Shown here in pieces: positions 1,757-52,290 of a DNA stretch of 55,732 nucleotides. The stretch is from Candidatus Uhrbacteria bacterium (lineage in GTDB: Bacteria > Patescibacteriota > Patescibacteriia > UBA9934): NCBI GenBank assembly GCA_943359325.1, contig CALRHD010000005.1, forward strand, positions 1 to 55,732. The letters run 5' to 3'. The notes under the pieces were generated by a model. It had not been told where the DNA came from. It ran no database searches and was given only the letters and a program-made list of their open reading frames with translations. A program made the translations under genes and the position numbers. Each line of letters opens with the position of its first letter. Position 1 is the first letter of the stretch.

Positions 1757-1791
1757 TTCAACACTAGGCACTGTCAGTGCTTAGTGTTGAA
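1757..1791. repeat. REP-like palindrome, copy 1 (TAGG/CTTA variant)
   Basis: TTCAACACTAGGCACTG-T-CAGTGCTTAGTGTTGAA. The arms are identical to the copy at 44757-44787, and the unit is near-identical to the two copies flanking the Y1 transposase at 43343-43924. Confidence 0.85.
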
Positions 1792-7666: not shown

Positions 7667-7676
7667 CGGAGGTTTT

Positions 7677-8903: not shown

Positions 8904-8908
8904 GTTTT

Positions 8909-10615: not shown

Positions 10616-10619
10616 AGGT

Positions 10620-11039
10620 TTGTACGACGGCTTGCCCATCTACACCACCCGCGGTAACATGCCAATGTTATTGAATTTGTTTATGACGAAACACAGCGGC
10701 GAAGAGACGATTATTGCACATGGCGTTCGCGTGGAGGGTGACTTTGTAAGTCAGGGGAACGTCATTATAGAGGGTGATGTGCAGGGCACGATACAAACGG
10801 CTGGTGACTTGCGCATTGGCGACGAGGCAAAAATCACCGCCGATGTCACTGCAGCAAACGCAACGGTGTCAGGTGAAATTCGTGGGAACATTCAGGTGAG
10901 CGGTAAGTTGGAGCTGTTGCCGTCGTCAAAAATTATTGGCGACATTACGGCTGACGTTCTTTCCATTGGCGCCGGCGCACAGATCAACGGAAAAATCACG
11001 ATGGATGGCAGACCAGTTAAAAAAGAAATAGCGGTGTAA
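10620..11039 (+). CDS. Bactofilin-family polymer-forming protein
   Basis: Beta-helical repeat pattern: GVRVEGDFVSQGNVIIEGDVQGTIQTAGDLRIGDEAKITADVTAANATVSGEIRGNI. The track start is TTG; the ATG at 10659 is an alternative. Confidence 0.85.
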   Translation: MYDGLPIYTTRGNMPMLLNLFMTKHSGEETIIAHGVRVEGDFVSQGNVIIEGDVQGTIQTAGDLRIGDEAKITADVTAANATVSGEIRGNIQVSGKLELLPSSKIIGDITADVLSIGAGAQINGKITMDGRPVKKEIAV

Positions 11040-11041
11040 AT

Positions 11042-11782
11042 GTGTACCTCTACGTCTACGACGAAAGCGTCCAAGACAGAAAAAACGAACGCGAATTGTC
11101 GCTTATTGAAACCCGTTTAACCGACTTGGGGATTGCGGGAAAGATTGCGCGGCTCGCACTTTTTCGCGATGCGACGGAACTTATTCGCGACGAAGTACGC
11201 CGCGGTGTGACGACGGTTGTCGCAGTAGGGAATGATCAAACGTTGCGTAAGGTGCTCGACGCGGTGCAGGACCCGCAGATCGTCGTCGCCATTATTCCGC
11301 TTGGGGGGAATAACGACATTGCGGCAATGCTTGGTGTGCCGCAGGGTGTGGCGGCGTGTGACACGCTTTCGGCACGGCTCGTGGAGGAAATGGACGCAGG
11401 AAGTGTGAATGGCATGCGATTTTTACACATCGCGACAGCAGAAAATGTGCAACCGAGTTGTGTGTGTGAAGGGAAATACGCCGTGCAACCCGTTCGTCCG
11501 AGCACGATTGAAATTCGCAATCTTGCCCAGTCGGCGGAGTTCGGGACTGCCGACCCCACGGACGGTAAGCTCGAATTCGTCATGAAAACGCCTCGTCGAC
11601 GTTGGTTCGTCCGCAAAACCGACGCGGTAACGGTTATCCCGTTTACCCACATTCTCATGAAAAGCCAAAAACCCATGACGATGTTTGTTGATGGTGAAGC
11701 GGTCGAAGGCACCGAATTTGACGTCAAAGTCCTCCCTCGCCAGATGCGGGTGGTAACGGGAAAAGAGAGGAAATACGCCTAG
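11042..11782 (+). CDS. Diacylglycerol/lipid kinase (DAGK_cat/YegS-like) family protein
   Basis: VVAVGNDQTLRKV resembles a degenerate GGDGT motif and IIPLGGNNDIA matches iiPlGTgNDfA. GTG start. The 3' end overlaps the convergent VKOR gene by about 59 nt. Confidence 0.65.
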   Translation: MYLYVYDESVQDRKNERELSLIETRLTDLGIAGKIARLALFRDATELIRDEVRRGVTTVVAVGNDQTLRKVLDAVQDPQIVVAIIPLGGNNDIAAMLGVPQGVAACDTLSARLVEEMDAGSVNGMRFLHIATAENVQPSCVCEGKYAVQPVRPSTIEIRNLAQSAEFGTADPTDGKLEFVMKTPRRRWFVRKTDAVTVIPFTHILMKSQKPMTMFVDGEAVEGTEFDVKVLPRQMRVVTGKERKYA

Positions 11783-12200
11783 GCAACACGAACCATCCTA
11801 ATACAAACAGCACTGTCGACGTGATGGCGGAACCCATGCACCACTGGCAGATGGCGTGGATGAGGAAAATTTGGGCGAAAACGAACCAAAGAGAAAAGAG
11901 AAAACCTGCGAGCGTGAATTTCCCTGCGAGGCGCAAGAGCCTCTCGTTTTTTTTGTCGACGGCAATGAACAGCATGCCGAACATTGTGAGGTAGTAGAGC
12001 GCACCGAGGAGCGCAACAGGAATGCCGAAGATTTCCGAGTAGCTGCTTGTGGTGACGACTTGGCAGCCGTGCGTAATGGTGCAGGGGAGGCGTGCGTCGG
12101 TGTAATGTGCCACGGTCAAATATGTTGCGTCGGCAAATCCGAGTAGCGCAACGCCAAGCATTGTCAGCGGTAACCAACGTGATGTTGCGAATATTGACAT
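11724..12200 (-). CDS. Vitamin K epoxide reductase (VKOR) family protein
   Basis: Multi-TM protein with a loop Cys pair (PCTITHGC) and a membrane CxxC (CQWC). Confidence 0.8.
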   Translation of the reverse strand: MSIFATSRWLPLTMLGVALLGFADATYLTVAHYTDARLPCTITHGCQVVTTSSYSEIFGIPVALLGALYYLTMFGMLFIAVDKKNERLLRLAGKFTLAGFLFSLWFVFAQIFLIHAICQWCMGSAITSTVLFVLGWFVLPRRISSLFPLPPASGEGGL

Positions 12201-12201
12201 A

Positions 12202-12999
12202 TTATTCTGTCGTAGATCCTGAGCTTGTCGAAGGGGTGTCTTCGGAAGCAGGCGACTGGCTTACTTTTGCAAGCGCTGCCTCAATCACTTTTTTCATGCC
12301 GTCGTAGCCGCTCGGAATGGGAATTGCCGTGCCGTTCAAAAAGAATGACGGTGTGCCCGAAAGGTTTGCCGCAATCGCGCTACGATGATCGGCGTTTACG
12401 CGTGCTGCTGTTTCGGGAGACGTGTAGTCGGCGATAAATTGGTCGGTGTTGAGGCCGAGACTTTGTGCGTACGAAGTAAATGCCTCTTTCGGATTCGGCA
12501 ACGTTCCCCATTCTGATTGTTTTGCAAAGAGTACATTCGCCATTTGGAAAAACGCACCCTGCTTGCCCGCAGCTTCTGCTGCATGCGCAGAATCGAAAGC
12601 ATTTTGGTGAATGTTCTGAAGAGGGAAGTAACGATAGACGAACAATACCTGGTCGCCGTACTCTTCCATGATTCTATTTACGACGGGGCCGAAACGTGCG
12701 CAGGTTGGACACTGAAAGTCGCTGTACTCTACGAGCACAACTTTTGCGTCAGGGTTCCCTTCGGTCCAGTCGCTCGCGTTGACAACACTCGGCAATGGCG
12801 TCTCCACTTTGACACTACTGCCTTTCGACGCCCACACAATGCCGCCGATGATTGCGACAATAATGATGAGTACACCGACGTATTTCATGACGCTTTTCAT
12901 GCCTGCGTTTCTTGCCATTGCTCTGTCGTTCGCCGCTTGCTGTGCCTTTTTCTCTTCGCGGCGCTCCTTGTCATTTTGGAGGATATTTTCATCGGTCAT
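12202..12999 (-). CDS. DsbA-family thiol:disulfide oxidoreductase, membrane anchored
   Basis: YSDFQCPTCARF is a CxxC thioredoxin fold, with an N-terminal TM (VGVLIIIVAIIGGIVWA). The start is moved to the ATG at 12999 because the track extension to 13116 runs into tRNA-Leu. Confidence 0.85.
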   Translation of the reverse strand: MTDENILQNDKERREEKKAQQAANDRAMARNAGMKSVMKYVGVLIIIVAIIGGIVWASKGSSVKVETPLPSVVNASDWTEGNPDAKVVLVEYSDFQCPTCARFGPVVNRIMEEYGDQVLFVYRYFPLQNIHQNAFDSAHAAEAAGKQGAFFQMANVLFAKQSEWGTLPNPKEAFTSYAQSLGLNTDQFIADYTSPETAARVNADHRSAIAANLSGTPSFFLNGTAIPIPSGYDGMKKVIEAALAKVSQSPASEDTPSTSSGSTTE

Positions 13000-13034
13000 A
13001 GTAACCCCATGGTATCGGAAACATGAAAATGGAG

Positions 13035-13072
13035 CAAACAAAAATCCGATGGCAAAAACCATCAGATTCTTG
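13035..13072 (-). terminator. Intrinsic terminator after tRNA-Leu; left arm of a 38-nt inverted repeat
   Basis: On the minus strand it reads caagaatctgatggtttttgccatcggatttttgtttg, a hairpin plus T-run. This is essentially identical to 13409-13446 on the plus strand. Confidence 0.6.
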
Positions 13073-13159
13073 TGGTGCGCGAAAGAGGACTCGAACCTCC
13101 AAGCTATTGCTAGCATCAGCCCCTCAAGCTGACGAGTTTACCAATTTCTCCATTCGCGC
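13073..13159 (-). tRNA. tRNA-Leu, anticodon GAG, type II, CCA encoded
   Basis: Reverse complement: GCGCGAA TG GAG..CTC, anticodon stem TCAGC/GCTGA with loop TTGAGGG, 15-nt variable arm, T arm GGAGG-TTCGAGT-CCTCT, TTCGCGC A CCA. Confidence 0.88.
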
Positions 13160-13175
13160 AAATATCAACGGGAAA

Positions 13176-13204
13176 ACTATAATAGATGCAGCGTCACTTG
13201 GCAA
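13176..13204 (-). promoter_or_regulatory. Candidate sigma70-type promoter for tRNA-Leu
   Basis: Minus strand TTGCCA-17 nt-TATAGT, ending about 17 nt upstream of the tRNA 5' end. Confidence 0.3.
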
Positions 13205-13226
13205 GATGAGGAAAATTCGTTAGCAT
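13198..13226 (+). promoter_or_regulatory. Candidate sigma70-type promoter for the tRNA-Val/tRNA-Ala pair
   Basis: TTGGCA-17 nt-TAGCAT, about 20 nt upstream of tRNA-Val. Its -35 overlaps the -35 of the divergent tRNA-Leu promoter (TTGGCAA). Confidence 0.3.
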
Positions 13227-13246
13227 TATGCCGCTGATAGTCACAT

Positions 13247-13323
13247 GGACGCCTAGCTCAGTTGGTTAGAGCATCTCGTTTACACCGAGAGGGTCGAGGG
13301 TTCGAGTCCCCCGGCGTCCACCA
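13247..13323 (+). tRNA. tRNA-Val, anticodon UAC, CCA encoded
   Basis: Acceptor GGACGCC/GGCGTCC, anticodon stem TCTCG/CGAGA with loop TTTACAC, T arm GAGGG-TTCGAGT-CCCCC. Confidence 0.9.
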
Positions 13324-13332
13324 CGAAGACAT

Positions 13333-13408
13333 GGGCTCTTAGCTCAGTTGGTAGAGCGTCTGGCTGGCAGTCAGAAGGTCACCGGTTCGAACCCGGTAGG
13401 GTCCACCA
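13333..13408 (+). tRNA. tRNA-Ala, anticodon GGC, CCA encoded
   Basis: Acceptor GGGCTCT/AGGGTCC carries the G3:U70 alanine identity pair. Anticodon loop CTGGCAG. Confidence 0.9.
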
Positions 13409-13446
13409 CAAGAATCTGATGGTTTTTGCCATCGGATTTTTGTTTT
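13409..13446 (+). terminator. Intrinsic terminator after tRNA-Ala; right arm of the 38-nt inverted repeat
   Basis: caagaatctgatggtttttgccatcggatttttgttttg: a hairpin (aatctgatgg/ccatcggatt) plus T-run. Confidence 0.6.
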
Positions 13447-13477
13447 GTGCTATAATTTTCGGCGTACACATTGTTTT

Positions 13478-13720
13478 ATGCTCGGAAGAATTATTATCGG
13501 CTTTCTTGTTTCGCTCCTTGGACTGGCAATGGTTTGGAAAACGGAGTTTTTTATGAGTGTGCTCGGTGAAGTTGACTGGGCGCTCAAATACTTGGGCGGT
13601 GGTGGTACCCGCTTGTTTTACAAGTTACTTGGCACGGCTGTCATTATGATCGGCTTTCTCATTATCACCAACTTGTGGAGCGACTTCATGGGCGGCCTTA
13701 TTCACCGACTTTTCGGATAG
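13478..13720 (+). CDS. Small membrane protein, hypothetical
   Basis: MLGRIIIGFLVSLLGLAMVW plus a second TM (LLGTAVIMIGFLIITNLW). The ATG at 13478 is preferred over the TTG at 13445. Confidence 0.5.
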   Translation: MLGRIIIGFLVSLLGLAMVWKTEFFMSVLGEVDWALKYLGGGGTRLFYKLLGTAVIMIGFLIITNLWSDFMGGLIHRLFG

Positions 13721-13723
13721 CGT

Positions 13724-14269
13724 ATGGCTTCAGGTAGCGCACTTCTCGACGCTCGCGCCATTCTCGCCGCGCTTGGCGTTGGCCGCGGCCACCATGTTGC
13801 CGATCTTGGTGTTGGTCGCACGGGGCATTTTGTGTTGCGTGCGGGCGAGGCGGTGGGGGAGTCGGGGAAAGTGTATGCAGTCGACATTCTGAAAGAAGCG
13901 CTTGCGATGGTTGATGGCAGTGCGCAGCATCATGGACGTGAAAATGTGCACACGGTTTGGGGTGATGTTGAGCGTGGTGACGGTGTCGCTATTCCTTCGG
14001 CAAGCCTCGATGTTGCACTTTTGGTGCACACGCTCGCGACCCTCACAGAATGGGATGCGACGGCACGTGAAGTACGGCGCATGGTAAAAGCGGGCGGTAA
14101 AATTGCAGTTATCGATTGGCTCCCCGCAGCCATTCATGTCGCGGCGCCGATGGTGGATCGTCGAATGTCCCCACAGGAATCCGACATTCTTTTTGCTCAT
14201 GCCGGCTGCCAAAAATGTGGCGAACTTACACCAAGCCGGTGGCATTGGGGTCGGGTGTATTCCGCATAG
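13724..14269 (+). CDS. Class I SAM-dependent methyltransferase
   Basis: VADLGVGRTG (motif I), KVYAVDI (motif II), GGKIAVIDW (post-motif). Confidence 0.8.
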   Translation: MASGSALLDARAILAALGVGRGHHVADLGVGRTGHFVLRAGEAVGESGKVYAVDILKEALAMVDGSAQHHGRENVHTVWGDVERGDGVAIPSASLDVALLVHTLATLTEWDATAREVRRMVKAGGKIAVIDWLPAAIHVAAPMVDRRMSPQESDILFAHAGCQKCGELTPSRWHWGRVYSA

Positions 14270-14310
14270 CACCTTGACGACCGCCCTGTTTGCCGTCACC
14301 CTATGGCCAT

Positions 14311-14709
14311 ATGATTTTTTCTCCAAGTTTTTGGTTCGACCTCACTCCGAACGCGCTCAGCCCGTTTTTTGAACAATTGTTTTTCGTTGTTTTCGCCGTA
14401 CTGATCATTGGCGGCGCGGTTCTGCGCATCGTCGCAAAGAACAAAATGACTGATAAATACGCACGTATTATTGCAAAACACGGCGCACAGATTGCGTTTG
14501 TTGCGGGTGTCACGGGATTTATTATCTATTTCTTCACATTCGAGGAGATTCAATTCTTCGGTTCGCGATTTTGGTTCCTCGTTTGGGGTATCGGTATTAT
14601 TGTCGCACTTGTCCGACTCTTCCGTTACGCAAAAAAGACTGTTCCGCAGCTTCGCCTTCGTGACCAGTCGCACGCCGACTCGAACAAATATTTGCCACGA
14701 CGTAATTAA
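14311..14709 (+). CDS. Hypothetical membrane protein
   Basis: Three to four TM segments (LFFVVFAVLIIGGAVL, IAFVAGVTGFIIYFF, FWFLVWGIGIIVALV). The ATG at 14311 is in frame with the track ORF. Confidence 0.55.
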   Translation: MIFSPSFWFDLTPNALSPFFEQLFFVVFAVLIIGGAVLRIVAKNKMTDKYARIIAKHGAQIAFVAGVTGFIIYFFTFEEIQFFGSRFWFLVWGIGIIVALVRLFRYAKKTVPQLRLRDQSHADSNKYLPRRN

Positions 14710-14710
14710 C

Positions 14711-15067
14711 ATGAAGGACGTCCGTAAAATTTTTGGTGACGCTGCCGAAAATCTTGCGGCGGAATATCTTGTACGTCACGGCATGCGAATTATTGCGCGC
14801 CAGTTCCGAACCGTGTTTGGAGAAATCGATCTCATTGCCATGGAAGGCGATGAGATCGTTTTTGTAGAAGTTAAGGCGCGACAAACAGATGAATACGGTT
14901 ACCCTGAGGCTGCCGTCACCCCGTCGAAACTCCGAAAAATTGCGAACGCGGGGCTCATGTATTTGCGTGAAGAGCACAAAGAAGACGTGCCGTACCGCAT
15001 TGACGTTGTCGCAATCGAATACTACATCGACCCGCCGCGAGTCACTCATTTACGTGCGGTGTCGTAG
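14711..15067 (+). CDS. YraN-family (UPF0102) endonuclease-like protein
   Basis: GDAAENLAAEYLVRHGMRIIARQFR..GEIDLIAMEGDEIVFVEVKAR is the typical YraN core. The ATG at 14711 follows the previous stop. Confidence 0.85.
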   Translation: MKDVRKIFGDAAENLAAEYLVRHGMRIIARQFRTVFGEIDLIAMEGDEIVFVEVKARQTDEYGYPEAAVTPSKLRKIANAGLMYLREEHKEDVPYRIDVVAIEYYIDPPRVTHLRAVS

Positions 15068-15081
15068 ATGTTAGATTTAGC

Positions 15082-15110
15082 TTGACTTTTGTTGAATCTT
15101 GTGGTAAATT
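15082..15110 (+). promoter_or_regulatory. Candidate promoter with extended -10 for the orphan gene 15199-15723
   Basis: TTGACT-17 nt-(TGG)TAAATT. An 80-nt leader follows, containing the hairpin GTCAGGA-acctc-TCCTGAC plus cattttc. Confidence 0.45.
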
Positions 15111-15198
15111 CCCTTGTCGTCAGGAACCTCTCCTGACGTCATTTTCCCACTGAAAATCACTACCCACCCCGTACAACGGGATTTCACAGGAGTCCACC

Positions 15199-15723
15199 AT
15201 GACCACCATGACCACCGTTACCCTCCTCGCGTCCCTTCCCTCCGAAGCCGAAGTCCTCGCCGCTTACCGTGCCGCAGGTGGCACTATCGAGAACGTGGCC
15301 GCTTCCGCCCTTATGATCGACGGTGATGCTGCCCCGATCGATCCCAACTGGGCACAGCCAGGTAAGACAGTGCATATCCCATGCGGCCAAGTCGACCCGA
15401 GTAGCCTTGTCTTCTTCCAGACAGAAGAGATGAAGAACGGCAGCGGCACGCTGGGTACCAACCTGTCCGACAAGACGCGCCAGGCCAAACTCAAGCCGAC
15501 GAATGCCAACGCCTGCGTCTTCCTCGAGCAAAATCAGGCGTTCCTGGCCAAGGTGCCGCAGAACATCAACTGCCTGATCTTCCCGGAGACGAGGTTCCTC
15601 GGCAGGAGCGGCTACTGGTACTTCCGGTGTTTGTTCCGGCGCGGCGGTCGGTGGGTGTTCTTCGACTACTATGTCGACTCCTGGTATTATGGCCAGTACG
15701 CTGTCGTGGCTTTCGGCGAGTAA
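15199..15723 (+). CDS. Hypothetical protein, orphan, with a strong C-ending codon bias
   Basis: AGGAG lies 8 nt upstream of the ATG. The gene has its own promoter-like and terminator-like signals. The antisense ORF 15184-15735 is judged a high-GC shadow. Confidence 0.6.
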   Translation: MTTMTTVTLLASLPSEAEVLAAYRAAGGTIENVAASALMIDGDAAPIDPNWAQPGKTVHIPCGQVDPSSLVFFQTEEMKNGSGTLGTNLSDKTRQAKLKPTNANACVFLEQNQAFLAKVPQNINCLIFPETRFLGRSGYWYFRCLFRRGGRWVFFDYYVDSWYYGQYAVVAFGE

Positions 15724-15801
15724 ACCCTCGGCCACTTAGCGCTCGAGCCCTGGCCTTGTCCCCTTTGTACTTTGTCACTTGTGACGAGTAACTGGGGTCG
15801 T

Positions 15802-15840
15802 AACCGGAGTTTTGCAGCAATGCGAGACTCCGGTTTTTTG
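15802..15840 (+). terminator. Intrinsic terminator
   Basis: AACCGGAGT..ACTCCGGTT, a 9-bp stem followed by TTTTTG. Confidence 0.65.
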
Positions 15841-15946
15841 TTTGAGATTTTTTTGATAAGTAGTACATTTGCACCTTTTTGTCCTCTCTGCTATCCTTTG
15901 CATATTGGACTCGGCTGTTGGCCGAGTTCACTTTTTAGCCAATGTT

Positions 15947-17149
15947 ATGTCCAGTGTCATTGAACAAGCAATTCGACAGATTTGTGATGAGAAAGGTTTG
16001 GAGTACGACTCTGTGCTTGAAACAATCGAAGCGGCGCTTGCCGCGGCGTATCGCAAAGACTATGGTGATCGTTATCACAATTTAGAGGCAGAGTTTGATC
16101 CCGAAACAGGTGCGGTGAAGGTTTTTGACGTGAAAACGGTTGTCGACGACATTAGCCAAGAAGAAGTGGAGGCAATGGAAAAACGCGAGGCACAGAAAGC
16201 GGCGGCGCGTGAAGCAGCGAAGGCAATCGGTGAACATTTGCCCGAAGAAGAAAGTGATGCAACAAAATTTAATCCGAAGACAGACATCATGCTTTCGCAG
16301 GCGAAAATTTTGAAATCATCGGCGAATGTGGGCGACGTACTCCGTACGGAAATGCCGACCGCAGGAGAATTCGGACGCATGGCAGCGATGACGGCCAAGC
16401 AAGTCATTACGCAAAAGTTGCGAGAAGCGGAACGCGAAATTATTTTTAACGAGTACAAGGGTCACGAAGGCGAAGTGTTAGTGGGAACGGTGCAGCGCCG
16501 CGAAGGGCGCATTGTGCTTGTCGATATTGGCCGTACAGCAGGAATTTTGAAACCTGAAGATCAAATCCAAAGCGAACGCTATGAGTCGGGGAGTCGCATA
16601 AAAGTATATGTGCGTGAAGTGTCGATCGGTCCGCGTGGTCCGCAAATTTTACTTTCGCGCACGCACGAAGGTTTGGTGCGCAGATTATTTGAGCTTGAAA
16701 TTCCTGAAATTGCTGACGGACTTGTGGAAATGAAGGCACTGGCTCGTGAGGCAGGAGCGCGCACAAAAATTTCTGTGTCGTCGAACGACGCAAGCATCGA
16801 CCCCATTGGTGCATGTATTGGTCAACGCGGTTCACGTATTCAAACAATTATTTCCGAACTCGCAGGCGAAAAAATTGACGTTATTGAATGGAGCGAAAAT
16901 CCGAGCGAGTTTATTCGCCACGCTCTTGCACCTGCAAAAATTGCGTCTATCGCCCTGCACGAAGACGAAAGAACGGCAACGGCTATGGTGGCGTCCGATC
17001 AATTGTCGCTTGCAATCGGTCGCGGTGGGCAGAACGTCCGTTTGGCCGCAAAACTTACTGGTTGGAAATTGAACATTCAAGAAGAGGGAAAACCTGAAGT
17101 GCCTGTCGAGGAAACGGTAGAGTCACCATCAGAACCTGCGGCAGAATAA
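15947..17149 (+). CDS. nusA: Transcription termination/antitermination factor NusA
   Basis: Has an N-terminal domain, an S1 domain (GEVLVGTVQRREGRIVLVDIG), and two KH domains (GACIGQRGSRIQ, AIGRGGQNVRLA). The start is placed at the ATG at 15947 (MSSVIEQ). Confidence 0.95.
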   Translation: MSSVIEQAIRQICDEKGLEYDSVLETIEAALAAAYRKDYGDRYHNLEAEFDPETGAVKVFDVKTVVDDISQEEVEAMEKREAQKAAAREAAKAIGEHLPEEESDATKFNPKTDIMLSQAKILKSSANVGDVLRTEMPTAGEFGRMAAMTAKQVITQKLREAEREIIFNEYKGHEGEVLVGTVQRREGRIVLVDIGRTAGILKPEDQIQSERYESGSRIKVYVREVSIGPRGPQILLSRTHEGLVRRLFELEIPEIADGLVEMKALAREAGARTKISVSSNDASIDPIGACIGQRGSRIQTIISELAGEKIDVIEWSENPSEFIRHALAPAKIASIALHEDERTATAMVASDQLSLAIGRGGQNVRLAAKLTGWKLNIQEEGKPEVPVEETVESPSEPAAE

Positions 17150-18902: not shown

Positions 18903-19823
18903 ATGTCTGACAGAATGCAACGAGCACCCACACCCATCGCCGCTGATTGTTTTTCCGTCATCGCATACTTTTCTTATTTTCAGTATCCGTTGACGGCGTT
19001 TGAAGTGTGGAAGTGGTTGTATATGCCGTCGCAGGCATGGAGTCTTGTGGACGTTATGACAGTGCTCGAAAAGGACGAATGGCTCCGAGAACGCGTGGGG
19101 GAGTGGAACGGATTTTATGGTATGGGCGACGTGGAGTCGGCATGGCGCGACCGTCACTCCCGTTACCTCGATGCAATGCGAAAGTACGCGGCGCTGCGTT
19201 TGGTTGCGGCGCTTATTGGCCGATTGCCGAGTGTGGAGGGTGTGTTCGTGTGTAATTCACTTGCGTACCACCATACGAACGAAGAGAGCGATAGTGACTT
19301 GTGCGTTGTCACGAAATCGGGACGGGTGTGGACGGCGAGACTGTTTGTTGTGCTGATGCTGGCGTTGTTGCGAAAACGACCCGGTGAAGCGAAGCGCGAC
19401 CCCGTGTGTGCGAGTTTTTTTGTCGACGTTACGACGATGGATTTTTCCGTGTACGCTATCGAGCCGCACGACCCGTACCTTGCGTATTGGACGGCGACGC
19501 TTATTCCGCTCGTTGATCGCGAGGGGGTTACACAACACACCGCGCAAACAAATACATGGACAAAGCAGTTTTTGCCAAATGCCCAGTCCGTTCACCGCGC
19601 ATTCGCATTTCGACGTAAAAAGGGGTCAGGTCTTGTTATTACTCATTTTGTCACAGAAAAATTCGCGCGACGATTTCAAGAAAAACGATTTACTCCTGTG
19701 ATTACTGCACTCTTGAACGTCGATTCGCGTGTTGTCGTGAACGACCACGTACTCAAATTTCATACGAATGACCGTCGCGCTGAAATTGCTACGACATATA
19801 AAGAAAAACTTTCTCGTATATGA
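18903..19823 (+). CDS. Hypothetical protein with a possible pol-beta-type nucleotidyltransferase motif; carries an in-frame 33-nt repeat insertion
   Basis: CNSLAYHHTNEESDSDLCVV resembles GS-x(n)-DxD. Residues KGSGLVITHF are encoded by the repeat at 19618-19650. Confidence 0.5.
   Translation: MSDRMQRAPTPIAADCFSVIAYFSYFQYPLTAFEVWKWLYMPSQAWSLVDVMTVLEKDEWLRERVGEWNGFYGMGDVESAWRDRHSRYLDAMRKYAALRLVAALIGRLPSVEGVFVCNSLAYHHTNEESDSDLCVVTKSGRVWTARLFVVLMLALLRKRPGEAKRDPVCASFFVDVTTMDFSVYAIEPHDPYLAYWTATLIPLVDREGVTQHTAQTNTWTKQFLPNAQSVHRAFAFRRKKGSGLVITHFVTEKFARRFQEKRFTPVITALLNVDSRVVVNDHVLKFHTNDRRAEIATTYKEKLSRI
19618..19650 (+). repeat. Solo copy of the 32-33 nt terminal repeat of the 21120-22023 element, lying inside a CDS
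   Basis: aaaaggggtcaggtcttgttattactcattttg is identical to 21120-21152. Confidence 0.9.
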
Positions 19824-21157
19824 CTATTCCGTTGAAGCAAACCCTGCTCTGTGTGTTCGTATTTTTACTCCCGTGGCAAACGCATCTTCTTGTGTCGACG
19901 GGAATGATTGGCGACGTTATTCATCCGTTTGCCGAAGCAAAGATTTTTTTGACGGAAATTTTTGTGCTGCTTGCGGCGCTTGCTGTGCTGTGGGAGCGGC
20001 CGAAGATTGACGCGTCGTCTCGGCGCGTCATTGTACTTGCCGTGCTCGTATTTGTTTCTGCTACGCTATCGCTTATTGCCAACGGAGCAACAGCGCACGG
20101 CTTGTCGATGCTCGACCATTTGTTTGTCGCGATGTTGTTTTTTACGCTTCTGCTCGATCGCGATGTCCACATTCTGCCGCTGTTGATTGCATTTTGCGCA
20201 GGGCTTGTTGTGCCGTCGCTGCTCGGAATATGGCAGGTGCTTTTTGACTCTTCGTTTGCGTCGACACTTCTCGGTCTCGCGCATCGCGATGCGCAGCAAC
20301 TTGGTGACGCTGTGACTATTGCTGCCGACGGAACACGTCAACTTCGTGCGTATGGCAGTTTTTCGCACCCAAACATTTTTGGCGGCTATCTCGCTGTTGC
20401 TGTATTCGCGCTGTGGGGGAGCATGAAAAAAGAAAAAGGGGTCAGGTCTTGGTCCGCCAGCTGGCGAAGGAATTTTGCCTTGTTGTTGCTATTGGTTGTC
20501 GTCCTCTTTTTTACCGCTTCGCGATCCGCAATTCTTGGTCTATTGCTTGGCATTGGTCTCGTGCAGTTCGTTCGGTTCATGTCGGTGAAATGTAGAAATG
20601 GCGTGGTACGAGCGAGATTACTCGTTGTTCCCATCGCAATTGCCGTCATCGGTAGTGCATTGTTTATTTCGTACGCAGAACCAAACGTTGTCGCGAGTAT
20701 TCGCGGCGGCGGCATTACTGAAGATCGTTCGCTCGATGAACGGAAGGAGCAGTTTGCTGATTTCCCCGCAGTGGTCGCCGGCCACATGATGTTCGGTAAC
20801 GGTATGGGAAGTTATGTTTTGGCGGCGTACAGCGCAAAAACGTGTACAGGCTGGGACTGTCAGCCGATGCACAACACGCTCCTCCTTATTCTCGCCGAAC
20901 TTGGTGTCGTCGGCCTCGTCGTTGTTATTGCGTGGTCATCAACAATCGACCGCATAAATTTCGCACGCTTTCCGAACCCCGATGCGCTCGTCGCATTCGC
21001 GATGGGCAACGTTATTCTCATCATTCTCTTTTTTGACCACTATATCTGGTCGACATGGTCTGGTCTCGCACTCATCGCTTTCGTCATGGCACTTACCGTC
21101 CGCATGGGAGAAAAGCAAGAAAAGGGGTCAGGTCTTGTTATTACTCATTTTGAGTAA
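19820..21157 (+). CDS. O-antigen ligase (Wzy_C/WaaL) family membrane protein
   Basis: RAYGSFSHPNIFGGYLAV, FFTASRSAILGLLLG, QPMHNTLLLILAELGVVG. There is an ATGA overlap with the upstream gene. The C-terminal KGSGLVITHFE is encoded by the element repeat. Confidence 0.8.
   Translation: MTIPLKQTLLCVFVFLLPWQTHLLVSTGMIGDVIHPFAEAKIFLTEIFVLLAALAVLWERPKIDASSRRVIVLAVLVFVSATLSLIANGATAHGLSMLDHLFVAMLFFTLLLDRDVHILPLLIAFCAGLVVPSLLGIWQVLFDSSFASTLLGLAHRDAQQLGDAVTIAADGTRQLRAYGSFSHPNIFGGYLAVAVFALWGSMKKEKGVRSWSASWRRNFALLLLLVVVLFFTASRSAILGLLLGIGLVQFVRFMSVKCRNGVVRARLLVVPIAIAVIGSALFISYAEPNVVASIRGGGITEDRSLDERKEQFADFPAVVAGHMMFGNGMGSYVLAAYSAKTCTGWDCQPMHNTLLLILAELGVVGLVVVIAWSSTIDRINFARFPNPDALVAFAMGNVILIILFFDHYIWSTWSGLALIAFVMALTVRMGEKQEKGSGLVITHFE
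20434..20451 (+). repeat. Partial (18-nt) copy of the same repeat inside the O-antigen ligase CDS
   Basis: aaaaggggtcaggtcttg, after which the sequence diverges. Encodes KKEKGVRSW. Confidence 0.6.
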
Positions 21158-22023
21158 AATTTTATGACGCGACCACTTCGTATTACATACTCTGGAGCTC
21201 TCTATCACATCACTGCTCGCGGCAATGAGAAGAAAGATATTTTCTTTTCCGACAGCGATCGCAGTCGTTTTTTGACAACTCTGGGTAATGTCGTAAGGTC
21301 ATATAATTGGATCTGTCACGGTTACTGTTTGATGGATAATCATTATCATCTACTGATTGAAACACCAGAAGGCAATCTATCGGAAGGTATGCGGCAACTG
21401 AACGGCATGTATACGCAGTCGATGAACAAGGTTCGCGGTCGGGTCGGTCACCTTTTTCAAGGAAGATTTAAAGCATTTCTTGTTGAGCAAGAAACATATT
21501 TGCGAGAAGTCGCCCGATATATTGTTTTAAATCCTGTGCGCGCAAAGATTGCCCGTCGACCAGAGGATTGGCGTTGGAGTAGCTATAGGGCCATGGTGGG
21601 TATTCGTGCGGTTCCTGATTTTCTTACTACACAAAATATACTCCGACGCTTTAGCTCGACAAAAAAGATCGCAATACAGAGGTATCGTGATTTTGTCTAC
21701 GAAGGGATTGGTGCGAGAAGTCCATTCCATAATGTACAACATGGTACATTGCTTGGCTCGCAGCAATTTGTTGATGCAATGTGGCAAGCAAATGACACGT
21801 CACACCTCACAGAAGTTTCAAAAGAAAATCGTATTATTGGACGTCCATCACTAAAAGATTTATTTTCAGGGAAACCAAGCAAAAAAGTTCGCAATCATAT
21901 GATTTGTGTCGCAAGAGATCAGTGCGGATATCCTATGATCGAAATTGCAAAAGCATTAAAAATACACTACTCGTCGGTGACGAGAATTTATAAAATGAGT
22001 AATAACAAGACCTGACCCCTTTT
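21120..22023 (+). mobile_element. 904-bp unit: a Y1/HUH transposase gene bounded by perfect 32-bp inverted repeats
   Basis: The left arm aaaaggggtcaggtcttgttattactcatttt (21120-21151) is the exact reverse complement of 21992-22023. Confidence 0.8.
21164..22015 (+). CDS. HUH/Y1 transposase-like protein (IS200-like / REP-associated tyrosine transposase family) with a C-terminal DnaA-C-like HTH
   Basis: PLRITYSGALYHITARGN, CLMDNHYHLLIETP (HUH), GHLFQGRFKA, ARYIVLNPVRA (catalytic Tyr region), WRWSSY. The C-terminal CGYPMIEIAKALKIHYSSVTRI is HTH-like. Confidence 0.85.
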   Translation: MTRPLRITYSGALYHITARGNEKKDIFFSDSDRSRFLTTLGNVVRSYNWICHGYCLMDNHYHLLIETPEGNLSEGMRQLNGMYTQSMNKVRGRVGHLFQGRFKAFLVEQETYLREVARYIVLNPVRAKIARRPEDWRWSSYRAMVGIRAVPDFLTTQNILRRFSSTKKIAIQRYRDFVYEGIGARSPFHNVQHGTLLGSQQFVDAMWQANDTSHLTEVSKENRIIGRPSLKDLFSGKPSKKVRNHMICVARDQCGYPMIEIAKALKIHYSSVTRIYKMSNNKT

Positions 22024-22101
22024 CCTTGACATTCCAGTGTTTACGCGGCAAGATGCGGCGAGAAAAGCTATACTTATAATTATTGTTAACGAGATGTTTC
22101 T

Positions 22102-27296: not shown

Positions 27297-28276
27297 AAGT
27301 GCTTGTAACCGGCGGAGCAGGATTTATTGGTTCACATCTTGTTGACGCATTGGTGGCGCGTGGCGATGATGTGGTTATCGTCGATCATCATCGGCGTGAG
27401 AAAATGCGTTTCCCGAATAGGAAGGCGACGACGTATGTCATGGGCATCGACGACGTGCGGCTCGAAGAGATTTTTTTTGCAGAGCGACCGGACGCCGTGT
27501 GTCACTTAGCGGCGCAAATTAGCGTCACACATTCTCTTGCACAGCCTATTGACGACGCCGAAAAAAATATTATCGATAGCGTGCGTTTGCTCGACATCGC
27601 GCAGAAGTCCGGAGTCAAAAAGTTTGTTTTTGCGTCGAGTGGTGGCGCGATTTATGGCGACCACGCACTGCGTCCTACGCCGCTCGTTGAGGACGTATGG
27701 CCGAGCACGCCGTATGGCGTGGGCAAGCACATTTTCGAACGCTATCTTCATCAGTATTGGGCGCAATACGGTCTTCGCTACACGTCGCTGCGTTTTGCAA
27801 ATGTGTATGGCCCGCGTCAACAGGCGGGAAAAGGTGGCGAAGATGGCAGCGCGATCGCGATTTTCCTCCACAAGATTTTTTCGGGTGAGCCGATAACGAT
27901 TTTTGGTGACGGCAGTGCAACCCGCGACTATGTGTTTGTGAGCGACGCCGTGGACGCGTTGTGTCGTGCAATTGATTCGGATTTTGTGGGCGTGGTGAAC
28001 GTTGGCACCGCACAGGAAACGTCGGTGAAAAATTTGTATGATCTTCTTGTCAGCATGCACGGCAACGAACATCCGTTGACGTTTGCACCATTTCGGCACG
28101 GAGAAACATTACGGAGTGTATTGTCGTTTGACTCTGCACGTGAACATTTGGACTGGGAACCGATGACCGCAATTGACGATGGTCTACGAAAAACGTATGA
28201 ATGGTATGCGTACGTTCTTCTCGCTCAGAACCTTTCCTCCACTACACCTGCTGCGCTACGCCGTTTAGGCTCGTAA
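27293..28276 (+). CDS. NAD-dependent epimerase/dehydratase, second paralogue
   Basis: MKVLVTGGAGFIGSHLVDAL and YGVGKHIFE (YxxxK). ATGA overlap with the upstream gene. The last ~20 codons lie inside palindrome family B copy 1. Confidence 0.9.
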   Translation: MKVLVTGGAGFIGSHLVDALVARGDDVVIVDHHRREKMRFPNRKATTYVMGIDDVRLEEIFFAERPDAVCHLAAQISVTHSLAQPIDDAEKNIIDSVRLLDIAQKSGVKKFVFASSGGAIYGDHALRPTPLVEDVWPSTPYGVGKHIFERYLHQYWAQYGLRYTSLRFANVYGPRQQAGKGGEDGSAIAIFLHKIFSGEPITIFGDGSATRDYVFVSDAVDALCRAIDSDFVGVVNVGTAQETSVKNLYDLLVSMHGNEHPLTFAPFRHGETLRSVLSFDSAREHLDWEPMTAIDDGLRKTYEWYAYVLLAQNLSSTTPAALRRLGS

Positions 28277-28341
28277 ACTCGCCGACGGCTGGGCGACAGA
28301 CGTTTCGTGGAGAAAAAGTTCCTCGCTGAAGAACGTTCACG
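28210..28341. repeat. Long imperfect palindrome, family B, copy 1 (about 132 nt)
   Basis: gtacgttcttctcgctcagaacctttcctccac ... gtggagaaaaagttcctcgctgaagaacgttcac. The core cctgctgcgctacgccgtt..gtaaactcg.cgacggctg.gcgacagacgtt is shared with 52161-52290. Confidence 0.8.
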
Positions 28342-28962: not shown

Positions 28963-29795
28963 ATGCAAAAAAATCATTCGGCCAGCACTTTTTACGCGAC
29001 GCAACTGTTGTCGCTGCAATTCTTCGCGCTGCCGAGCCGGAGAAATTTTCGCTTATTGTTGAAGTGGGGCCGGGAAACGGCGTGCTTACAAGGGCGATAG
29101 TAAGGGAAAGTCAGTTTGCCCTTATTGAAGCTGATCGTGATCTCATTCCTGCTCTCGAGCAGGAGTTTCCGTCGGCAAAAGTTATTTTTGCTGATGCCGC
29201 GCGTGTTGACTATGCGGATATCTGTCGGCAACTGAGTCGTGGACAGTTGTCCGCCCCCACGGTTCGATGGCTTTTAGTGGGGAATCTGCCGTACAACGCC
29301 GCAAATGCGATTATCATGAATGCACTTGAGTCGGAGTGTCCGCCTGAACGCATGGTGGTGATGGTGCAAAAAGAAGTGGGGGAGCGCATGCTCGGATTGA
29401 CGCCGCAGTCGCGCGGTGTGTTGACGGTTGCGGTGCAGATGTATGCCGACGTTGAACGGATTTGTACCGTGAAGCCTGGCGCATTCGTTCCACCGCCGAA
29501 AGTCGACTCGATGGTTCTTCGACTGACAAAAGGCCGTCGAACGGCCTTTACCCCAGACCGCGTAATCGCACTGGCGAAAATTGGCTTCGCGAATCGTCGT
29601 AAACAGCTGCACCGTAATCTTGCCGACGCAGGTGTTGCGCCATCTGATGTCGTCAAAAAGCACCTTGTGGATATAGGGCTCACTGCTTCCGCCCGTGCCG
29701 AAGAACTTTCGATGGAGCAATGGGTGCATTTGTGCAGCGTGTTGCCGAAGCCCGAGCCTCGAGTGGTACTTTCCACGACTCGCGAAGGAAAATAG
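28956..29795 (+). CDS. rsmA: 16S rRNA (adenine1518/1519-N6)-dimethyltransferase
   Basis: KKSFGQHFL, VEVGPGNGVLT, VGNLPYN. GTG start overlapping the tsaC stop. The C-terminal ~15 codons lie inside palindrome family A copy 2. Confidence 0.92.
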   Translation: MVDAKKSFGQHFLRDATVVAAILRAAEPEKFSLIVEVGPGNGVLTRAIVRESQFALIEADRDLIPALEQEFPSAKVIFADAARVDYADICRQLSRGQLSAPTVRWLLVGNLPYNAANAIIMNALESECPPERMVVMVQKEVGERMLGLTPQSRGVLTVAVQMYADVERICTVKPGAFVPPPKVDSMVLRLTKGRRTAFTPDRVIALAKIGFANRRKQLHRNLADAGVAPSDVVKKHLVDIGLTASARAEELSMEQWVHLCSVLPKPEPRVVLSTTREGK

Positions 29796-29897
29796 CACGA
29801 TTCAGTCGTCGACTCCATGCAGGAATATATTCGACGATCGTAAGAGTGCTTCCGAGCGATGTCGGGGAAATGTACCCGAGAGGCGAAGGAGCGAGGC
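29745..29897. repeat. Long imperfect palindrome, family A, copy 2
   Basis: gcctcgagtggtactttccacgactcgcgaagg..gcacgattcagtcgtcga / tcgacgatcgtaagagtgc..gatgtcggggaaatgtacccgagaggc. Aligns to the reverse complement of 3663-3829. Confidence 0.8.
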
Positions 29898-43128: not shown

Positions 43129-43245
43129 GGAAACCTCTATTTTGGGAAAAAGTGGGGTGCACGGAGAAAAGAAAGAACAAGTGTGCACTCAAAACATAGT
43201 CCAAAAATCCCATTTTGTCAACTTCTCGGAGTTATCTGGAGTTAT

Positions 43246-43276
43246 CAACACTCGGCACTGGCAGTGCCGAGTGTTG
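43246..43276. repeat. REP-like palindrome, copy 2 (TCGG/CCGA variant), 5' flank of the Y1 transposase
   Basis: CAACACTCGGCACTG-G-CAGTGCCGAGTGTTG, with perfect 15-nt arms. Confidence 0.9.
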
Positions 43277-43342
43277 TGGTAAAATTATATTGACTCCCTG
43301 GTCTAAGCTGGGGATCTTTTTATTCCAGCGCATTGTTTCTTT

Positions 43343-43924
43343 ATGCGCGACATTACTTTTGGGACAGGAGAGTACTATCATGTTTACGTGCGGGGTGTTG
43401 ATAAGAGGAATATGTTTATGGATGACGTCGACCGACGGCGTTTTCTGGCAACGATGCAGAAGGCGAATATCATCGACGATCAATGCCGAGTGGCTATTAT
43501 AAGCTTCGTACTCATGTCGAATCACATACATTTGCTCTTGCGGCACGAGAGGAGCGATGGAGTACCCGCATTCATGCAACGTTTACATAATTCGTACGCA
43601 AAGTATTTTAACAAGCGTCATGATCGCGAGGGGCATCTTTGTTCGTCGAAGTATAAAGCAAAGCACATTGACTCTGACGCTTATTTTCTTCACCTCACAC
43701 GGTATATCCACAAAAATCCTTTATCTTTGCGCGGAGTGACGTCACGAACATTGGAGGAATATCGATGGTCGAGCTATCGACATTACCTGGGTTTTGAGCG
43801 TCAACCATTTGTTGACGCGGAGGCAGTGCTGGGGGACTTCAAAGAGCAGGGGTCATACCGTGCGTTCATGAACATCAGATTGCATAATGATGTTATTGAA
43901 CCTTATCTTTTCAATGAGGAGTAG
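43343..43924 (+). CDS. HUH/Y1 transposase-like protein (REP-associated tyrosine transposase-like)
   Basis: YYHVYVRG, FVLMSNHIHLLLRH (HUH), GHLCSSKYKAK, LTRYIHKNPL (Tyr motif), YRWSSYRHYLG. Confidence 0.82.
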   Translation: MRDITFGTGEYYHVYVRGVDKRNMFMDDVDRRRFLATMQKANIIDDQCRVAIISFVLMSNHIHLLLRHERSDGVPAFMQRLHNSYAKYFNKRHDREGHLCSSKYKAKHIDSDAYFLHLTRYIHKNPLSLRGVTSRTLEEYRWSSYRHYLGFERQPFVDAEAVLGDFKEQGSYRAFMNIRLHNDVIEPYLFNEE

Positions 43925-43940
43925 TGACGGAGAGCGGGTT

Positions 43941-43970
43941 CAACACTCGGCACTGTCAGTGCCGAGTGTT
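43941..43970. repeat. REP-like palindrome, copy 3, 3' flank of the Y1 transposase
   Basis: CAACACTCGGCACTG-T-CAGTGCCGAGTGTT. Confidence 0.9.
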
Positions 43971-43991
43971 ATTGTGAGTTATAAAACAATA

Positions 43992-44019
43992 CCCACGTAG
44001 CTCTGGCGAGCTACGTGGG
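43992..44019 (-). terminator. Hairpin terminator for the minus-strand small gene
   Basis: CCCACGTAGCTC-tggc-GAGCTACGTGGG, a perfect 12-bp stem. On the minus strand it is followed by tattgtttta. Confidence 0.55.
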
Positions 44020-44034
44020 GAGGAGAGCGGAGTG

Positions 44035-44241
44035 CTAATCAGGTGGAGGGGATTGTGATTTCCTGTTTGGTAGGAAAAGGAGTATGTTCATTGCGAAGAC
44101 TACGGCTACTAAAAGGTAGTTGAAGGCTTGTTCGGGATTTGATGGATTTTCTATGATCGATTTGAAGAATCTGATCACGAGAATGACGACACTTGCCCAT
44201 CCACAAAATTCAGGACGAGGTAAGATTTTTTTCCAATTCAC
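44035..44241 (-). CDS. Small membrane protein, hypothetical
   Basis: GGAGG lies 5 nt upstream of a GTG start. Two hydrophobic segments (GWASVVILVIRFF, LLVAVVFAMNILLFL). Confidence 0.45.
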   Translation of the reverse strand: MNWKKILPRPEFCGWASVVILVIRFFKSIIENPSNPEQAFNYLLVAVVFAMNILLFLPNRKSQSPPPD

Positions 44242-44357
44242 GATGACCTCCAGTGAAGTGAGGAAAGTCTATCACGCTTATTTTTTTGTGTAAAACAGCT
44301 CTAAAACAAATTGCCGTCATGGAAAACCACGACGGCAACGAGCGGTTGAACCTTCCA

Positions 44358-44656
44358 CTAGGCGACCATTGTTTGCGGGCAGGGATGGCGGCGGTAGTAG
44401 AGGATGGTCATGACAAGCACGCTGTACCCAACGGCTCCAATAGCAACCGGAATGAGCATAGAATAGTCGAGCGTGCCATGTGTGGTGAATCGAGCCATTA
44501 CGAGACAGCATTGATGATGGAAAAGGCGTGGCTCTGCAAACTGACTTGATCCGTACGTTTCGCGCGATGGATCTTTTTGACTTGATCCCAGATGCAAAAC
44601 GTATTGGAGTAACCCTGACTCGCGAGAACAGTTAGGCCGAGAATGACGTTGAACAT
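44358..44656 (-). pseudogene. Possible frameshifted SemiSWEET/PQ-loop-like small transporter
   Basis: AGGAGG lies 5 nt upstream of the ATG at 44656. MFNVILGLTVLASQGYSNTFCIWDQVKKIHRAKRTDQVSL resembles the PQ-loop pattern (..PQ..K....K...g.S). That frame ends at a TAA, and the next frame continues THGTLDYSMLIPVAIGAVGYSVLVMTILYYRR. Similarity is judged by eye only. Confidence 0.3.
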
Positions 44657-44756
44657 TTGTTCCTCCTGAAAGAACAACGAATAATAGCAGAAAAAGGCAC
44701 TTTCGTCAAGTCGAAAATGCAATAAAATAGCTGATACTAAACAAATTATTTCCTTT

Positions 44757-44787
44757 CAACACTAGGCACTGACAGTGCTTAGTGTTG
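44757..44787. repeat. REP-like palindrome, copy 4 (TAGG/CTTA variant)
   Basis: CAACACTAGGCACTG-A-CAGTGCTTAGTGTTG. Confidence 0.85.
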
Positions 44788-52160: not shown

Positions 52161-52290
52161 GGCGTTCGTTTGACTCAGAACATTCCTTGCACTCCACCTG
52201 CTGCGCTACGCCGTTCACGACTTGTAAACTCGTCGACGGCTGTGCGACAGACGTTACGTGCAAAGAATGTTCCGAGTCTGACGAACGCAC
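52161..52290. repeat. Long imperfect palindrome, family B, copy 2 (130 nt), filling the gap between the two VirB4 ORFs
   Basis: ggcgttcgtttgactcagaacattccttgcac ... gtgcaaagaatgttccgagtctgacgaacgcac. Confidence 0.8.

Follow-up and report, generated by a model that had tools for sequence, protein, structure and literature searches.

The locus

The 55,732-nt stretch considered here (contig CALRHD010000005.1 of assembly GCA_943359325.1, Candidatus Uhrbacteria; hereafter the window) contains an intact open reading frame (ORF) of 193 codons for a predicted HUH/Y1 single-stranded DNA (ssDNA) nuclease, which carries the motifs NHIHLL (H61, H63) and RYIHKNP (Y121) and lies between two copies, B and C, of a 31-nt palindrome. 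Two further copies, A and D, stand alone elsewhere in the window. An original prediction, made from the sequence, had described this arrangement as similar to a module formed by repetitive extragenic palindromic (REP) sequences and a REP-associated tyrosine transposase (RAYT); the gene with both motifs, its position between the palindromes and the two additional intergenic copies were all recovered as described. Positions are collected in Table 1.

A degenerate palindrome search allowing up to 3 mismatches over the whole window found exactly four sites, while 100 dinucleotide-preserving shuffles of the window gave 0 matches, and a chance origin of the four palindromes was therefore rejected. 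A repeat finder also places copies A-D into one family (D4). The arms of B and C are the same (CAACACTCGGCACTG / CAGTGCCGAGTGTT); the central base is G in B and T in C, and the last base is G in B and A in C. Thus, the perfect 31-nt palindrome that had been proposed for both sides of the gene holds for B, but C is perfect over only 29 nt (43942-43970) and has one mismatch as a 31-mer. A and D also share identical arms and differ in the central base alone (T versus A); copy A can be extended to a palindrome of 37 nt, 1756-1792. Compared with B and C, the solo copies show a C>A change in the left arm together with a compensatory G>T in the right one, turning a C:G into an A:T pair, as had been predicted; to this is added a second right-arm change, C>T, which is uncompensated, so that the + strand has a G:T wobble and the - strand an A.C mismatch. 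Since A and D have the same arms, including the compensated pair, they must be copies of one another rather than sequences of independent origin.

As ssDNA, all four copies are predicted to fold into hairpins of 13-17 bp, with energies of -12 to -17 kcal/mol and z-scores between -5.7 and -7.3. All of them are intergenic, in a region where gene calls span about 91% of the 20.6 kb surrounding the Y1 gene. Copy A is located between a tRNA-Val gene (1637-1713) and a 138-aa ORF (1834-2250), and copy D in a divergent intergenic region, with small - strand ORFs on one side and the gene of an M23 peptidase on the other. In a scan for terminator-like structures D alone passed, a T-rich tail being present on D and not on A, B and C; the palindromes were thus rejected as plain terminators. 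A half-site without the right arm was also found, inside a gene for a DsbA-like protein, where about 0.01-0.02 half-site matches are expected by chance according to our own estimate (15-mers with at most 1 mismatch, window length, both strands, arm variants); it could be a remnant or have arisen by coincidence, and its membership in the family is uncertain.

Table 1. Positions of the Y1 gene, the palindrome copies and other sequence elements in the window.
Feature	Position	Strand	Remarks
Palindrome A, solo	1759..1789	no strand	variant arms CAACACTAGGCACTG / CAGTGCTTAGTGTTG, centre T
Half-site CAACACTCGGCAATG	12783..12797	+	14/15 bases, inside DsbA-like gene, no right arm
Tandem GAGTTATC-TG-GAGTTATC	43229..43246	+	abuts left palindrome B; significance weak
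TTATCAACA	43243..43251	+	one mismatch from TTATCCACA (DnaA-box consensus); overlaps left arm of palindrome B
Palindrome B, left flank	43246..43276	no strand	perfect 15-bp arms, centre G, 66 nt 5' of ATG
Promoter-like match	43258..43285	+	CTGGCA, 16-nt spacer, TG-n-TAAAAT; -35 half inside palindrome B; consensus match only
Leader hairpin and T-run TCCCTGGTCTAAGCTGGGGA TCTTTTTATT	43295..43324	+	directly before start codon
HUH/Y1 ssDNA nuclease gene (predicted)	43343..43924	+	193 aa; H61, H63, Y121, N125-P126, S143-S144
Palindrome C, right flank	43941..43971	no strand	arms of B, centre T, last base A; begins 17 nt past stop codon
GAGTTATA	43976..43983	+	right-hand partner of GAGTTAT repeat; weak
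Palindrome D, solo	44757..44787	no strand	variant arms of A, centre A; terminator-like on + strand

The Y1 protein and its class

Y1 nucleases of class 2 (TnpAREP-like) carry the tyrosine motif Y-x3-NP, while those of class 1 (IS200) carry Y-x3-Q (Quentin et al. 2018, PMC6006769), and the HUH motif of class 1, comprising the TnpA of IS200/IS605, is DH[VI]H. The window protein has N60-H61-I62-H63 as its HUH motif and carries the class-2 signature in Y121-IHK-N125-P126. In an alignment of 36 homologs H61, H63, Y121, N125 and S143-S144 are invariant and P126 is found in at least 90%, the consensus being CLMPNHxHLLL ... LFQGRFKAK ... YIHxNP ... YRWSSY. Pfam recognizes only Y1_Tnp (45 bits, residues 11-125) and no C-terminal helix-turn-helix (HTH) domain of the Bac_DnaA_C, HTH_23 or HTH_28 type in the protein, which stops at residue 193. 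A profile search of PDB placed the Escherichia coli TnpAREP (4ER8) first, with an alignment spanning the HUH motif, the tyrosine motif and the W-x-S-S tail. The AlphaFold (AF2) model, with a pLDDT of 91, likewise finds its best PDB match in 4ER8, the complex of TnpAREP with a REP hairpin (E 7e-8, TM 0.62/0.71), followed by the TnpA of IS608 and ISDra2 at about 1e-5. Taken together, motifs and fold indicate a class-2 (TnpAREP-like) Y1 nuclease, RAYT-like and not IS200-like.

The NCBIfam models agree as to the class, the score being 52.2 bits with REP_Tyr_transpos (NF047646) and 21.1 bits with IS200 (NF033573), while the respective cutoffs of 80 and 55 are both missed. Of the RAYT-like arrangement that had been claimed, the RAYT-like nature of the enzyme stood, but the strict assignment did not: because the RAYT cutoff is missed and the GT[AG]G tag that defines canonical REPs is absent, the protein is not a canonical RAYT (subclasses 2.2 and 2.5). 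Published motifs of subclass 2.1 (Bertels Group 1) are NHVH or NH[YF]H, W[EQ] or FQ, YIELNP or Y[IV]HLNP, and an SS proximal tail (PMC6006769). The family consensus, with NHxH, FQ, YIHxNP and RWSSY, fits them, while the window protein has NHIH, C-S, YIHKNP and RWSSY. By this comparison of motifs, the protein appears closest to subclass 2.1 / Bertels Group 1 / TIRYT, of which it would be a short form devoid of the HTH tail. Membership in subclass 2.6 was rejected, the spacing from HUH to the tyrosine being 60 residues versus about 82. The family is large, with 24,350 clusters (50% identity) at E <= 1e-3 and 41 at 1e-30, and the nearest relative is 53% identical. No tnpB-like ORF adjoins the Y1 gene, which bears out the absence of tnpB suggested as a check.

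Repeats flanking the relatives of the gene

Eighty genome loci encoding relatives were fetched (L-numbers designate fetched loci) and the 300 nt on each side of the gene were compared. In 47% of 74 homolog loci the two flanks have an exact word of at least 14 nt in common, while among 730 control positions taken from these loci the figure is 1.8%; the presence of flanking repeats thus characterizes the Y1 family. They are of two types. Inverted repeats with the motif GGGGWSAS surround the genes of longer proteins, which come from many phyla, and correspond to TIRYT/TIRtron elements; lineage-specific hairpins, for example TCCAAGGTTCGACCTTGGA, lie on either side of the genes for short proteins (about 190-230 aa), and the short-protein loci with an informative title are mostly from metagenome-assembled genomes (MAGs) of Patescibacteria. 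The earlier statement that such enzymes are characterised mainly in Proteobacteria is outdated, class-2 Y1 genes being known in many phyla, and their occurrence in a genome of this kind, which had been considered notable, is common at the annotation level, with many named relatives and loci from Patescibacteria MAGs.

Hairpins of the second type are found in dispersed extra copies as well, with 10 copies in 10.7 kb, in pairs 71 nt apart, at L007 and 8 copies in 20 kb at L025. The hairpin of one relative occurs in 105 copies (at most 2 mismatches) in 80 metagenome stretches, 26 of them next to or inside a Y1 gene; its intergenic bias is mild, with 73% of the hairpin centres falling in open frames versus 89% of random positions. 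In eight loci (L008, L009, L021, L024, L025, L026, L034 and L043) a copy of the hairpin lies in frame inside the Y1 gene, usually about 150 nt from its start, at the site where a variable insertion separates the first helix from the HUH strand; these are short-type relatives, many of them from Patescibacteria MAGs. In-gene insertions of such kind were previously described for subclass 2.4 only (PMC6006769).

The closest relative, with 53% identity (L097), is bracketed by a palindrome with a 22-bp stem, whose arm CAGTGCCAGGTGTGTG has a 13-nt core, CAGTGCC[RR]GTGT, in common with the window arm CAGTGCCGAGTGTTG; the core was found nowhere else in the 1.43 Mb of fetched DNA. Since this core is common to the two loci only, the comparison shows that gene and palindrome have a shared descent and evolve together. 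A relative with 42% identity from Uhrbacteria (L089) is flanked by palindromes with 11- and 13-bp stems.

Host, genomic neighbourhood and copy number

GroEL encoded in the window is 82% identical to that of MAGs named "Patescibacteria group bacterium" and 75-77% identical to that of Candidatus Uhrbacteria, and the M23 peptidase and the downstream genes similar to those of type IV secretion systems (T4SS) are most similar to sequences of this group too, among them those of an 839-kb Uhrbacteria genome. The host is thus a Patescibacteria bacterium close to Ca. Uhrbacteria, in line with the compact genome that had been supposed.

The block 30920-55436 is conserved across Uhrbacteria-like genomes (L003, L005, L011, L088, L089 and L097) and consists of a giant surface protein (3412 aa, CBM_4_9), a variable region, an M23 peptidase, two large proteins of unknown kind, PrgI, a TraC-like protein and VirB4. 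The cargo of the variable region differs: the window has the Y1 module, L088 a YcaO-nitroreductase fusion and L089 an RHS/SpvB toxin. In six related genomes the closest relatives of the Y1 gene lie within 8 kb of the M23/PrgI/TraC-like/VirB4 cluster, with varying position and orientation, while in the wider family 85 of 91 loci have no T4SS genes nearby. Given this recurrence by the same cluster in six genomes, a long residence in the variable region fits better than free transposition; orthology is not proved. An empty-site comparison with L088 gave no clean empty site, other genes being present there and the neighbouring lipoprotein genes being unalignable.

No second copy or fragment of the Y1 gene is present in the 55.7-kb window. 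The exact protein has one context on record, the two places returned being the same and three further similar places not being shown. Contigs from several samples that cover the Y1 locus and the left end of the window differ from it at 0-1 positions, and homolog clusters mostly map to 1-2 contigs. The contigs carrying the leftmost genes all end at window position 1, and the rightmost ORF has no record; window positions 1-15987 are also covered by contig CALRAF010000016.1 of the MAG GCA_943350455.1. A high copy number across the genome, mostly outside genes, is the core property of REPs; the palindrome pattern AACACTNNGCACTGNCAGTGCNNAGTGTT had 0 matches in a genome-contig and a metagenome-contig collection, neither of which holds this organism. 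Some unitig-like Logan contigs end inside the palindromes, 29-30 nt in: this is seen in one run for C (43969, L002) and in two runs for A (1761, L092 and L093). The contig of L097 stops inside its palindrome as well. Because a 31-mer graph breaks where the same 30-mer recurs in the sample, the ends inside A and C hint at identical copies elsewhere in the sample, although they do not amount to a count. The Y1 unit has a G+C content of 46%, the window as a whole of 51% and the neighbouring genes of 58-61%.

Other elements around the gene

A GAGTTAT direct repeat, proposed to abut the unit on both sides, is present at 43229, 43239 and 43976, but is statistically unconvincing, with 6 occurrences on the + strand of the window versus 3.4 expected. 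Moreover, it does not represent a feature of the homolog loci: their outer flanks share a word of at least 7 nt in 9% of 22 cases, against about 5% for mismatched control pairs, and the reading as a target-site duplication or a cleavage site was not retained as a general one.

The left arm of palindrome B overlaps a near match to the DnaA box. A perfect TTATCCACA lies 77-126 nt upstream of the start codon in L005, L083, L086 and L087, where 0.8 matches would be expected on both strands of all loci, while in L089 it is found downstream of the Y1 gene (1666-1674, - strand); paralogous Y1 proteins of the family often have a DnaA_C-like HTH. As a milder version of the T4SS-linked reading discussed below, the conserved box could couple the module to DnaA and replication. 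Directly before the gene, the leader hairpin looks like a terminator or attenuator; a hairpin of the form CCCC..GGGG followed by TTTTTATTT is found at the same position in L083, L085, L086, L087 and L089. Such a hairpin before the Y1 gene is reminiscent of the left end of IS200.

The segment between C and D (43972-44756, 785 nt, 45% G+C) contains three small ORFs on the - strand, of 68, 46 and 52 aa, which resemble membrane peptides and have no family match, giving the layout palindrome, Y1 gene, palindrome, small genes, palindrome, in which C and D might delimit another hairpin-bounded cassette. An Rfam scan of the window returned tRNAs only. One of the tRNAs, at 939-1015, is a tRNA-Ile with the anticodon UAU; in most bacteria AUA is decoded by a CAU tRNA that carries lysidine.

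A second Y1 module and other repeats

The window comprises a second Y1 module, 21119-22024, with a G+C content of 41.5%. Its gene (21164-22015) codes for a 283-aa protein that is 35% identical to the 193-aa protein and passes the NCBIfam RAYT cutoff (86.7 versus 80). On both sides of the gene are perfect terminal inverted repeats (TIRs) of 33 nt, GAAAAGGGGTCAGGTCTTGTTATTACTCATTTT, which contain GGGGTCAG, corresponding to the TIRYT consensus GGGGWSAS; the left one supplies the 3' end of a Wzy_C (O-antigen ligase-like) ORF, and solo copies are found inside upstream ORFs at 19618-19650 (100% identical) and 20430-20451 (a 22-nt partial copy). By these features the module is a textbook TIRYT. In a relative with 82% GroEL identity an unrelated 282-aa gene occupies its slot.

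Two other pairs of repeats were observed. An intergenic repeat of about 140 nt is present in inverted orientation at 3676-3813 and 29752-29890, 26 kb apart, with 84-87% identity, and Logan contigs break inside the copy at 3676-3813 too. A direct repeat of about 110 nt (D14, D15) occurs at 28213-28322 and 52163-52273, 24 kb apart, with 83-85% identity.

Interpretation and alternative explanations

The locus is best explained, with a probability of roughly 60%, as a REPtron/TIRtron-type module, in which a resident, probably single-copy class-2 Y1 nuclease gene is associated with a 31-nt palindrome as its cognate substrate. The gene would be transcribed from a promoter overlapping palindrome B, as the consensus match suggests, and the palindromes are predicted to extrude as hairpins of 13-15 bp in ssDNA, for instance in the lagging-strand template. 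From what is typical of the family, we infer that the enzyme would bind the hairpin and that, with the metal held by H61/H63 and the nucleophile Y121, it would cut and rejoin the strand next to the hairpin foot. This reaction would mobilise the hairpin, copying or moving it, or hairpin-bounded segments, to new intergenic sites, with the solo copies A and D as the outcome.

Several observations weigh against such a module. There are four copies only, three of them inside 1.6 kb, and GT[AG]G is present at either hairpin foot in 0 of the 4 copies. A 5' TTC on the + strand is reported for all four (flanks as read TTTC, TATC, GTTC, TTTC), and a tag on the same strand corresponds to a direct, IS200-like arrangement and not to the inverted one of E. 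coli REPs. REPIN-type pairs, for which a check had been proposed, do not occur in the window, where the solo copies are singletons. As to the protein, the RAYT cutoff is not reached, and the C-S dipeptide is found at the W/F-Q position, W94 and Q95 of E. coli TnpAREP lying within the region implicated in recognition of the GTAG guide. A relative with 46% identity lies in an unrelated context, between rpoD and bipA, and L088, which is the nearest genome by M23 identity, is devoid of the Y1 gene and has YcaO and a C39-like peptidase instead. Finally, no REPs or hairpin repeats were found for subclass 2.1 by Quentin et al. (PMC6006769).

The main rival is an autonomous, minimal IS200-like insertion sequence, which is unlikely on the whole; here, the unit of 726-755 bp would move via ssDNA circles and the solo palindromes would be scars of deletions in which the gene was lost by recombination between its two identical terminal palindromes. 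The same 5' TTC tag at both ends gives a direct orientation like that of the left and right ends of IS200, the unit is about IS200-sized, and the terminator-like hairpin before the gene recalls the IS200 left end as well; the protein, however, has NHIH and Y-x3-NP instead of DH[VI]H and Y-x3-Q and does not reach the cutoff of the IS200 model. GAGTTAT occurs outside both ends, but direct repeats in the outer flanks are not a feature of the family. Mobility is also suggested by the lower G+C content of the unit, by its location in a variable region with differing cargo in the relatives and by the non-syntenic places of the latter; against it stand the lack of a second copy or fragment in 55.7 kb, the one context on record for the protein, the near identity of contigs from several samples, the mapping of most homolog clusters to 1-2 contigs and the finding that the clade keeps close to a single gene cluster in six genomes.

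Two other readings, with a role in regulation alone or a connection to the T4SS-like genes, are less likely. The palindromes could chiefly be regulatory or structural signals in DNA or RNA, such as an operator bound by a dimeric DNA-binding protein, a terminator or insulator, or a stabiliser of mRNA 3'-ends, and not moved substrates, with the proximity of the Y1 gene reflecting autoregulation. This improbable reading is favored by copy B, in which the -35 half of the one acceptable + strand promoter match preceding the gene is located, and by copy C, located just past the stop codon, in a place where it would shield the transcript as a stable hairpin; copy D passes the terminator-like scan, but its T-rich tail is unique among the four, and copy A is preceded immediately by the terminator of the tRNA itself. 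Owing to the G:T wobble, the stem of A and D is intact on the + strand only, which would suit an RNA or a single strand read from +, with an energy gap of only about 1 kcal/mol. Against a regulatory role alone speak the lineage-specific hairpins on both sides of homologs in dozens of genomes, which co-vary with the protein, and the dispersed solo copies far from any Y1 gene; it is compatible with the REPtron/TIRtron-type module, because binding of the Y1 protein could autoregulate the gene as well. Relaxases, too, are HUH enzymes that nick beside an inverted repeat. Together with its hairpins, the Y1 nuclease might serve the neighbouring T4SS-like apparatus, as a relaxase-like nicking enzyme and an oriT-like site for ssDNA transfer, which is a very improbable reading. 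The vicinity of the closest relatives to the M23/PrgI/TraC-like/VirB4 cluster in six genomes, at varying positions and orientations, would agree with it, but vertical descent in one lineage can explain the same vicinity; moreover, the family occurs in all kinds of contexts, mostly without T4SS genes nearby, including the one between rpoD and bipA, L088 has the cluster and no Y1 gene, and the fold matches transposase-type Y1 enzymes, not relaxases. That the Uhrbacteria-like Y1 clade with its hairpins is functionally tied to the cluster, with a nicking enzyme and an oriT-like site for ssDNA export or import, is likewise very improbable; if true, it would represent a relaxase-equivalent of transposase descent in these cells.

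In the window a Patescibacteria host with a reduced genome has two distinct class-2 Y1 modules within 25 kb, with their own repeat families and solo copies, and the comparison with relatives shows that hairpin-flanked Y1 genes are widespread in these organisms. This makes the group useful for studying the co-evolution of Y1 nucleases and their DNA substrates in very small genomes. There is also a practical warning, as palindromes of this kind break short-read assemblies of such genomes, the contigs of independent runs stopping inside them. The module does not reveal a new mechanism.

Comparison with known systems

REP/RAYT and TIR/TIRYT systems were described from complete genomes of cultivated bacteria, and the largest survey links them to large genomes; as for REP/RAYT in Patescibacteria and the candidate phyla radiation, only incidental mentions at the annotation level were found in the literature. 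The E. coli TnpAREP/RayT (YafM) REPtron (4ER8; subclass 2.2, Bertels Group 2) shares with the window module the HUH/Y1 nuclease with Y-x3-NP and a W/F-x-S-S tail, a gene bracketed by palindromic repeats that are also found solo, and the lack of tnpB. The window module differs in the RAYT score under the cutoff, in the absence of GT[AG]G and of REPIN pairs, in its perfect 15-bp stems without any bulge, in the 5' TTC on one strand and in the replacement of the W-Q residues.

With IS200 and the TnpA of IS200/IS605 the module has in common the HUH/Y1 fold and a unit of about 0.7 kb with a hairpin in the same orientation near each end; tyrosine and HUH motifs and the IS200 score set the protein apart, as stated above, and unlike these elements the module shows no multiple identical copies in 55.7 kb and has solo hairpins. 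Subclass 2.6 (Group 5, from Bacteroidetes, with "atypical secondary structures") resembles it in NH[LIV]H, in a YIH[QN]NP-like motif, in the SS tail, in a length of about 180 aa and in GTAG-less flanking hairpins with copies elsewhere in the genome; besides the shorter HUH-to-Y spacing, however, the window protein lacks the 21-aa alphaC-beta4 insertion, and its family has F and not W at the W position.

TIRYT/TIRtron elements (Di Nocera et al. 2013, PMC3733652) correspond to the subclass 2.1 of Quentin (2018) and to the RAYTs placed in Group 1 by Bertels (2017). TIRYT genes are flanked by TIRs, many with GGGGWSAS, which are not REPs, and some of these repeats are self-complementary, such as those of the Stenotrophomonas maltophilia ORF 1152 family (PMC3733652). 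Shared with the window module are the motifs of the family consensus, NHxH, FQ, YIHxNP and the SS tail, flanking repeats without GTAG, among which self-complementary ones have been described, and moderate or small repeat families with solo copies. The differences consist in the short, 193-aa form without a DnaA_C/HTH tail and in the GGGGWSAS motif, which is absent from the palindrome and the repeats of the Y1 gene 43343-43924. In contrast to subclass 2.1 as published, with no hairpin repeats, Patescibacteria-type relatives are commonly flanked by hairpins, some with a copy in the gene. Thus, what is new here is the host group, the short form devoid of HTH and the frequency of hairpins in Patescibacteria-type relatives of a branch reported as hairpin-free; the module is closest to the TIRYT/TIRtron class and would work like the E. 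coli REPtron, as a known kind of module.

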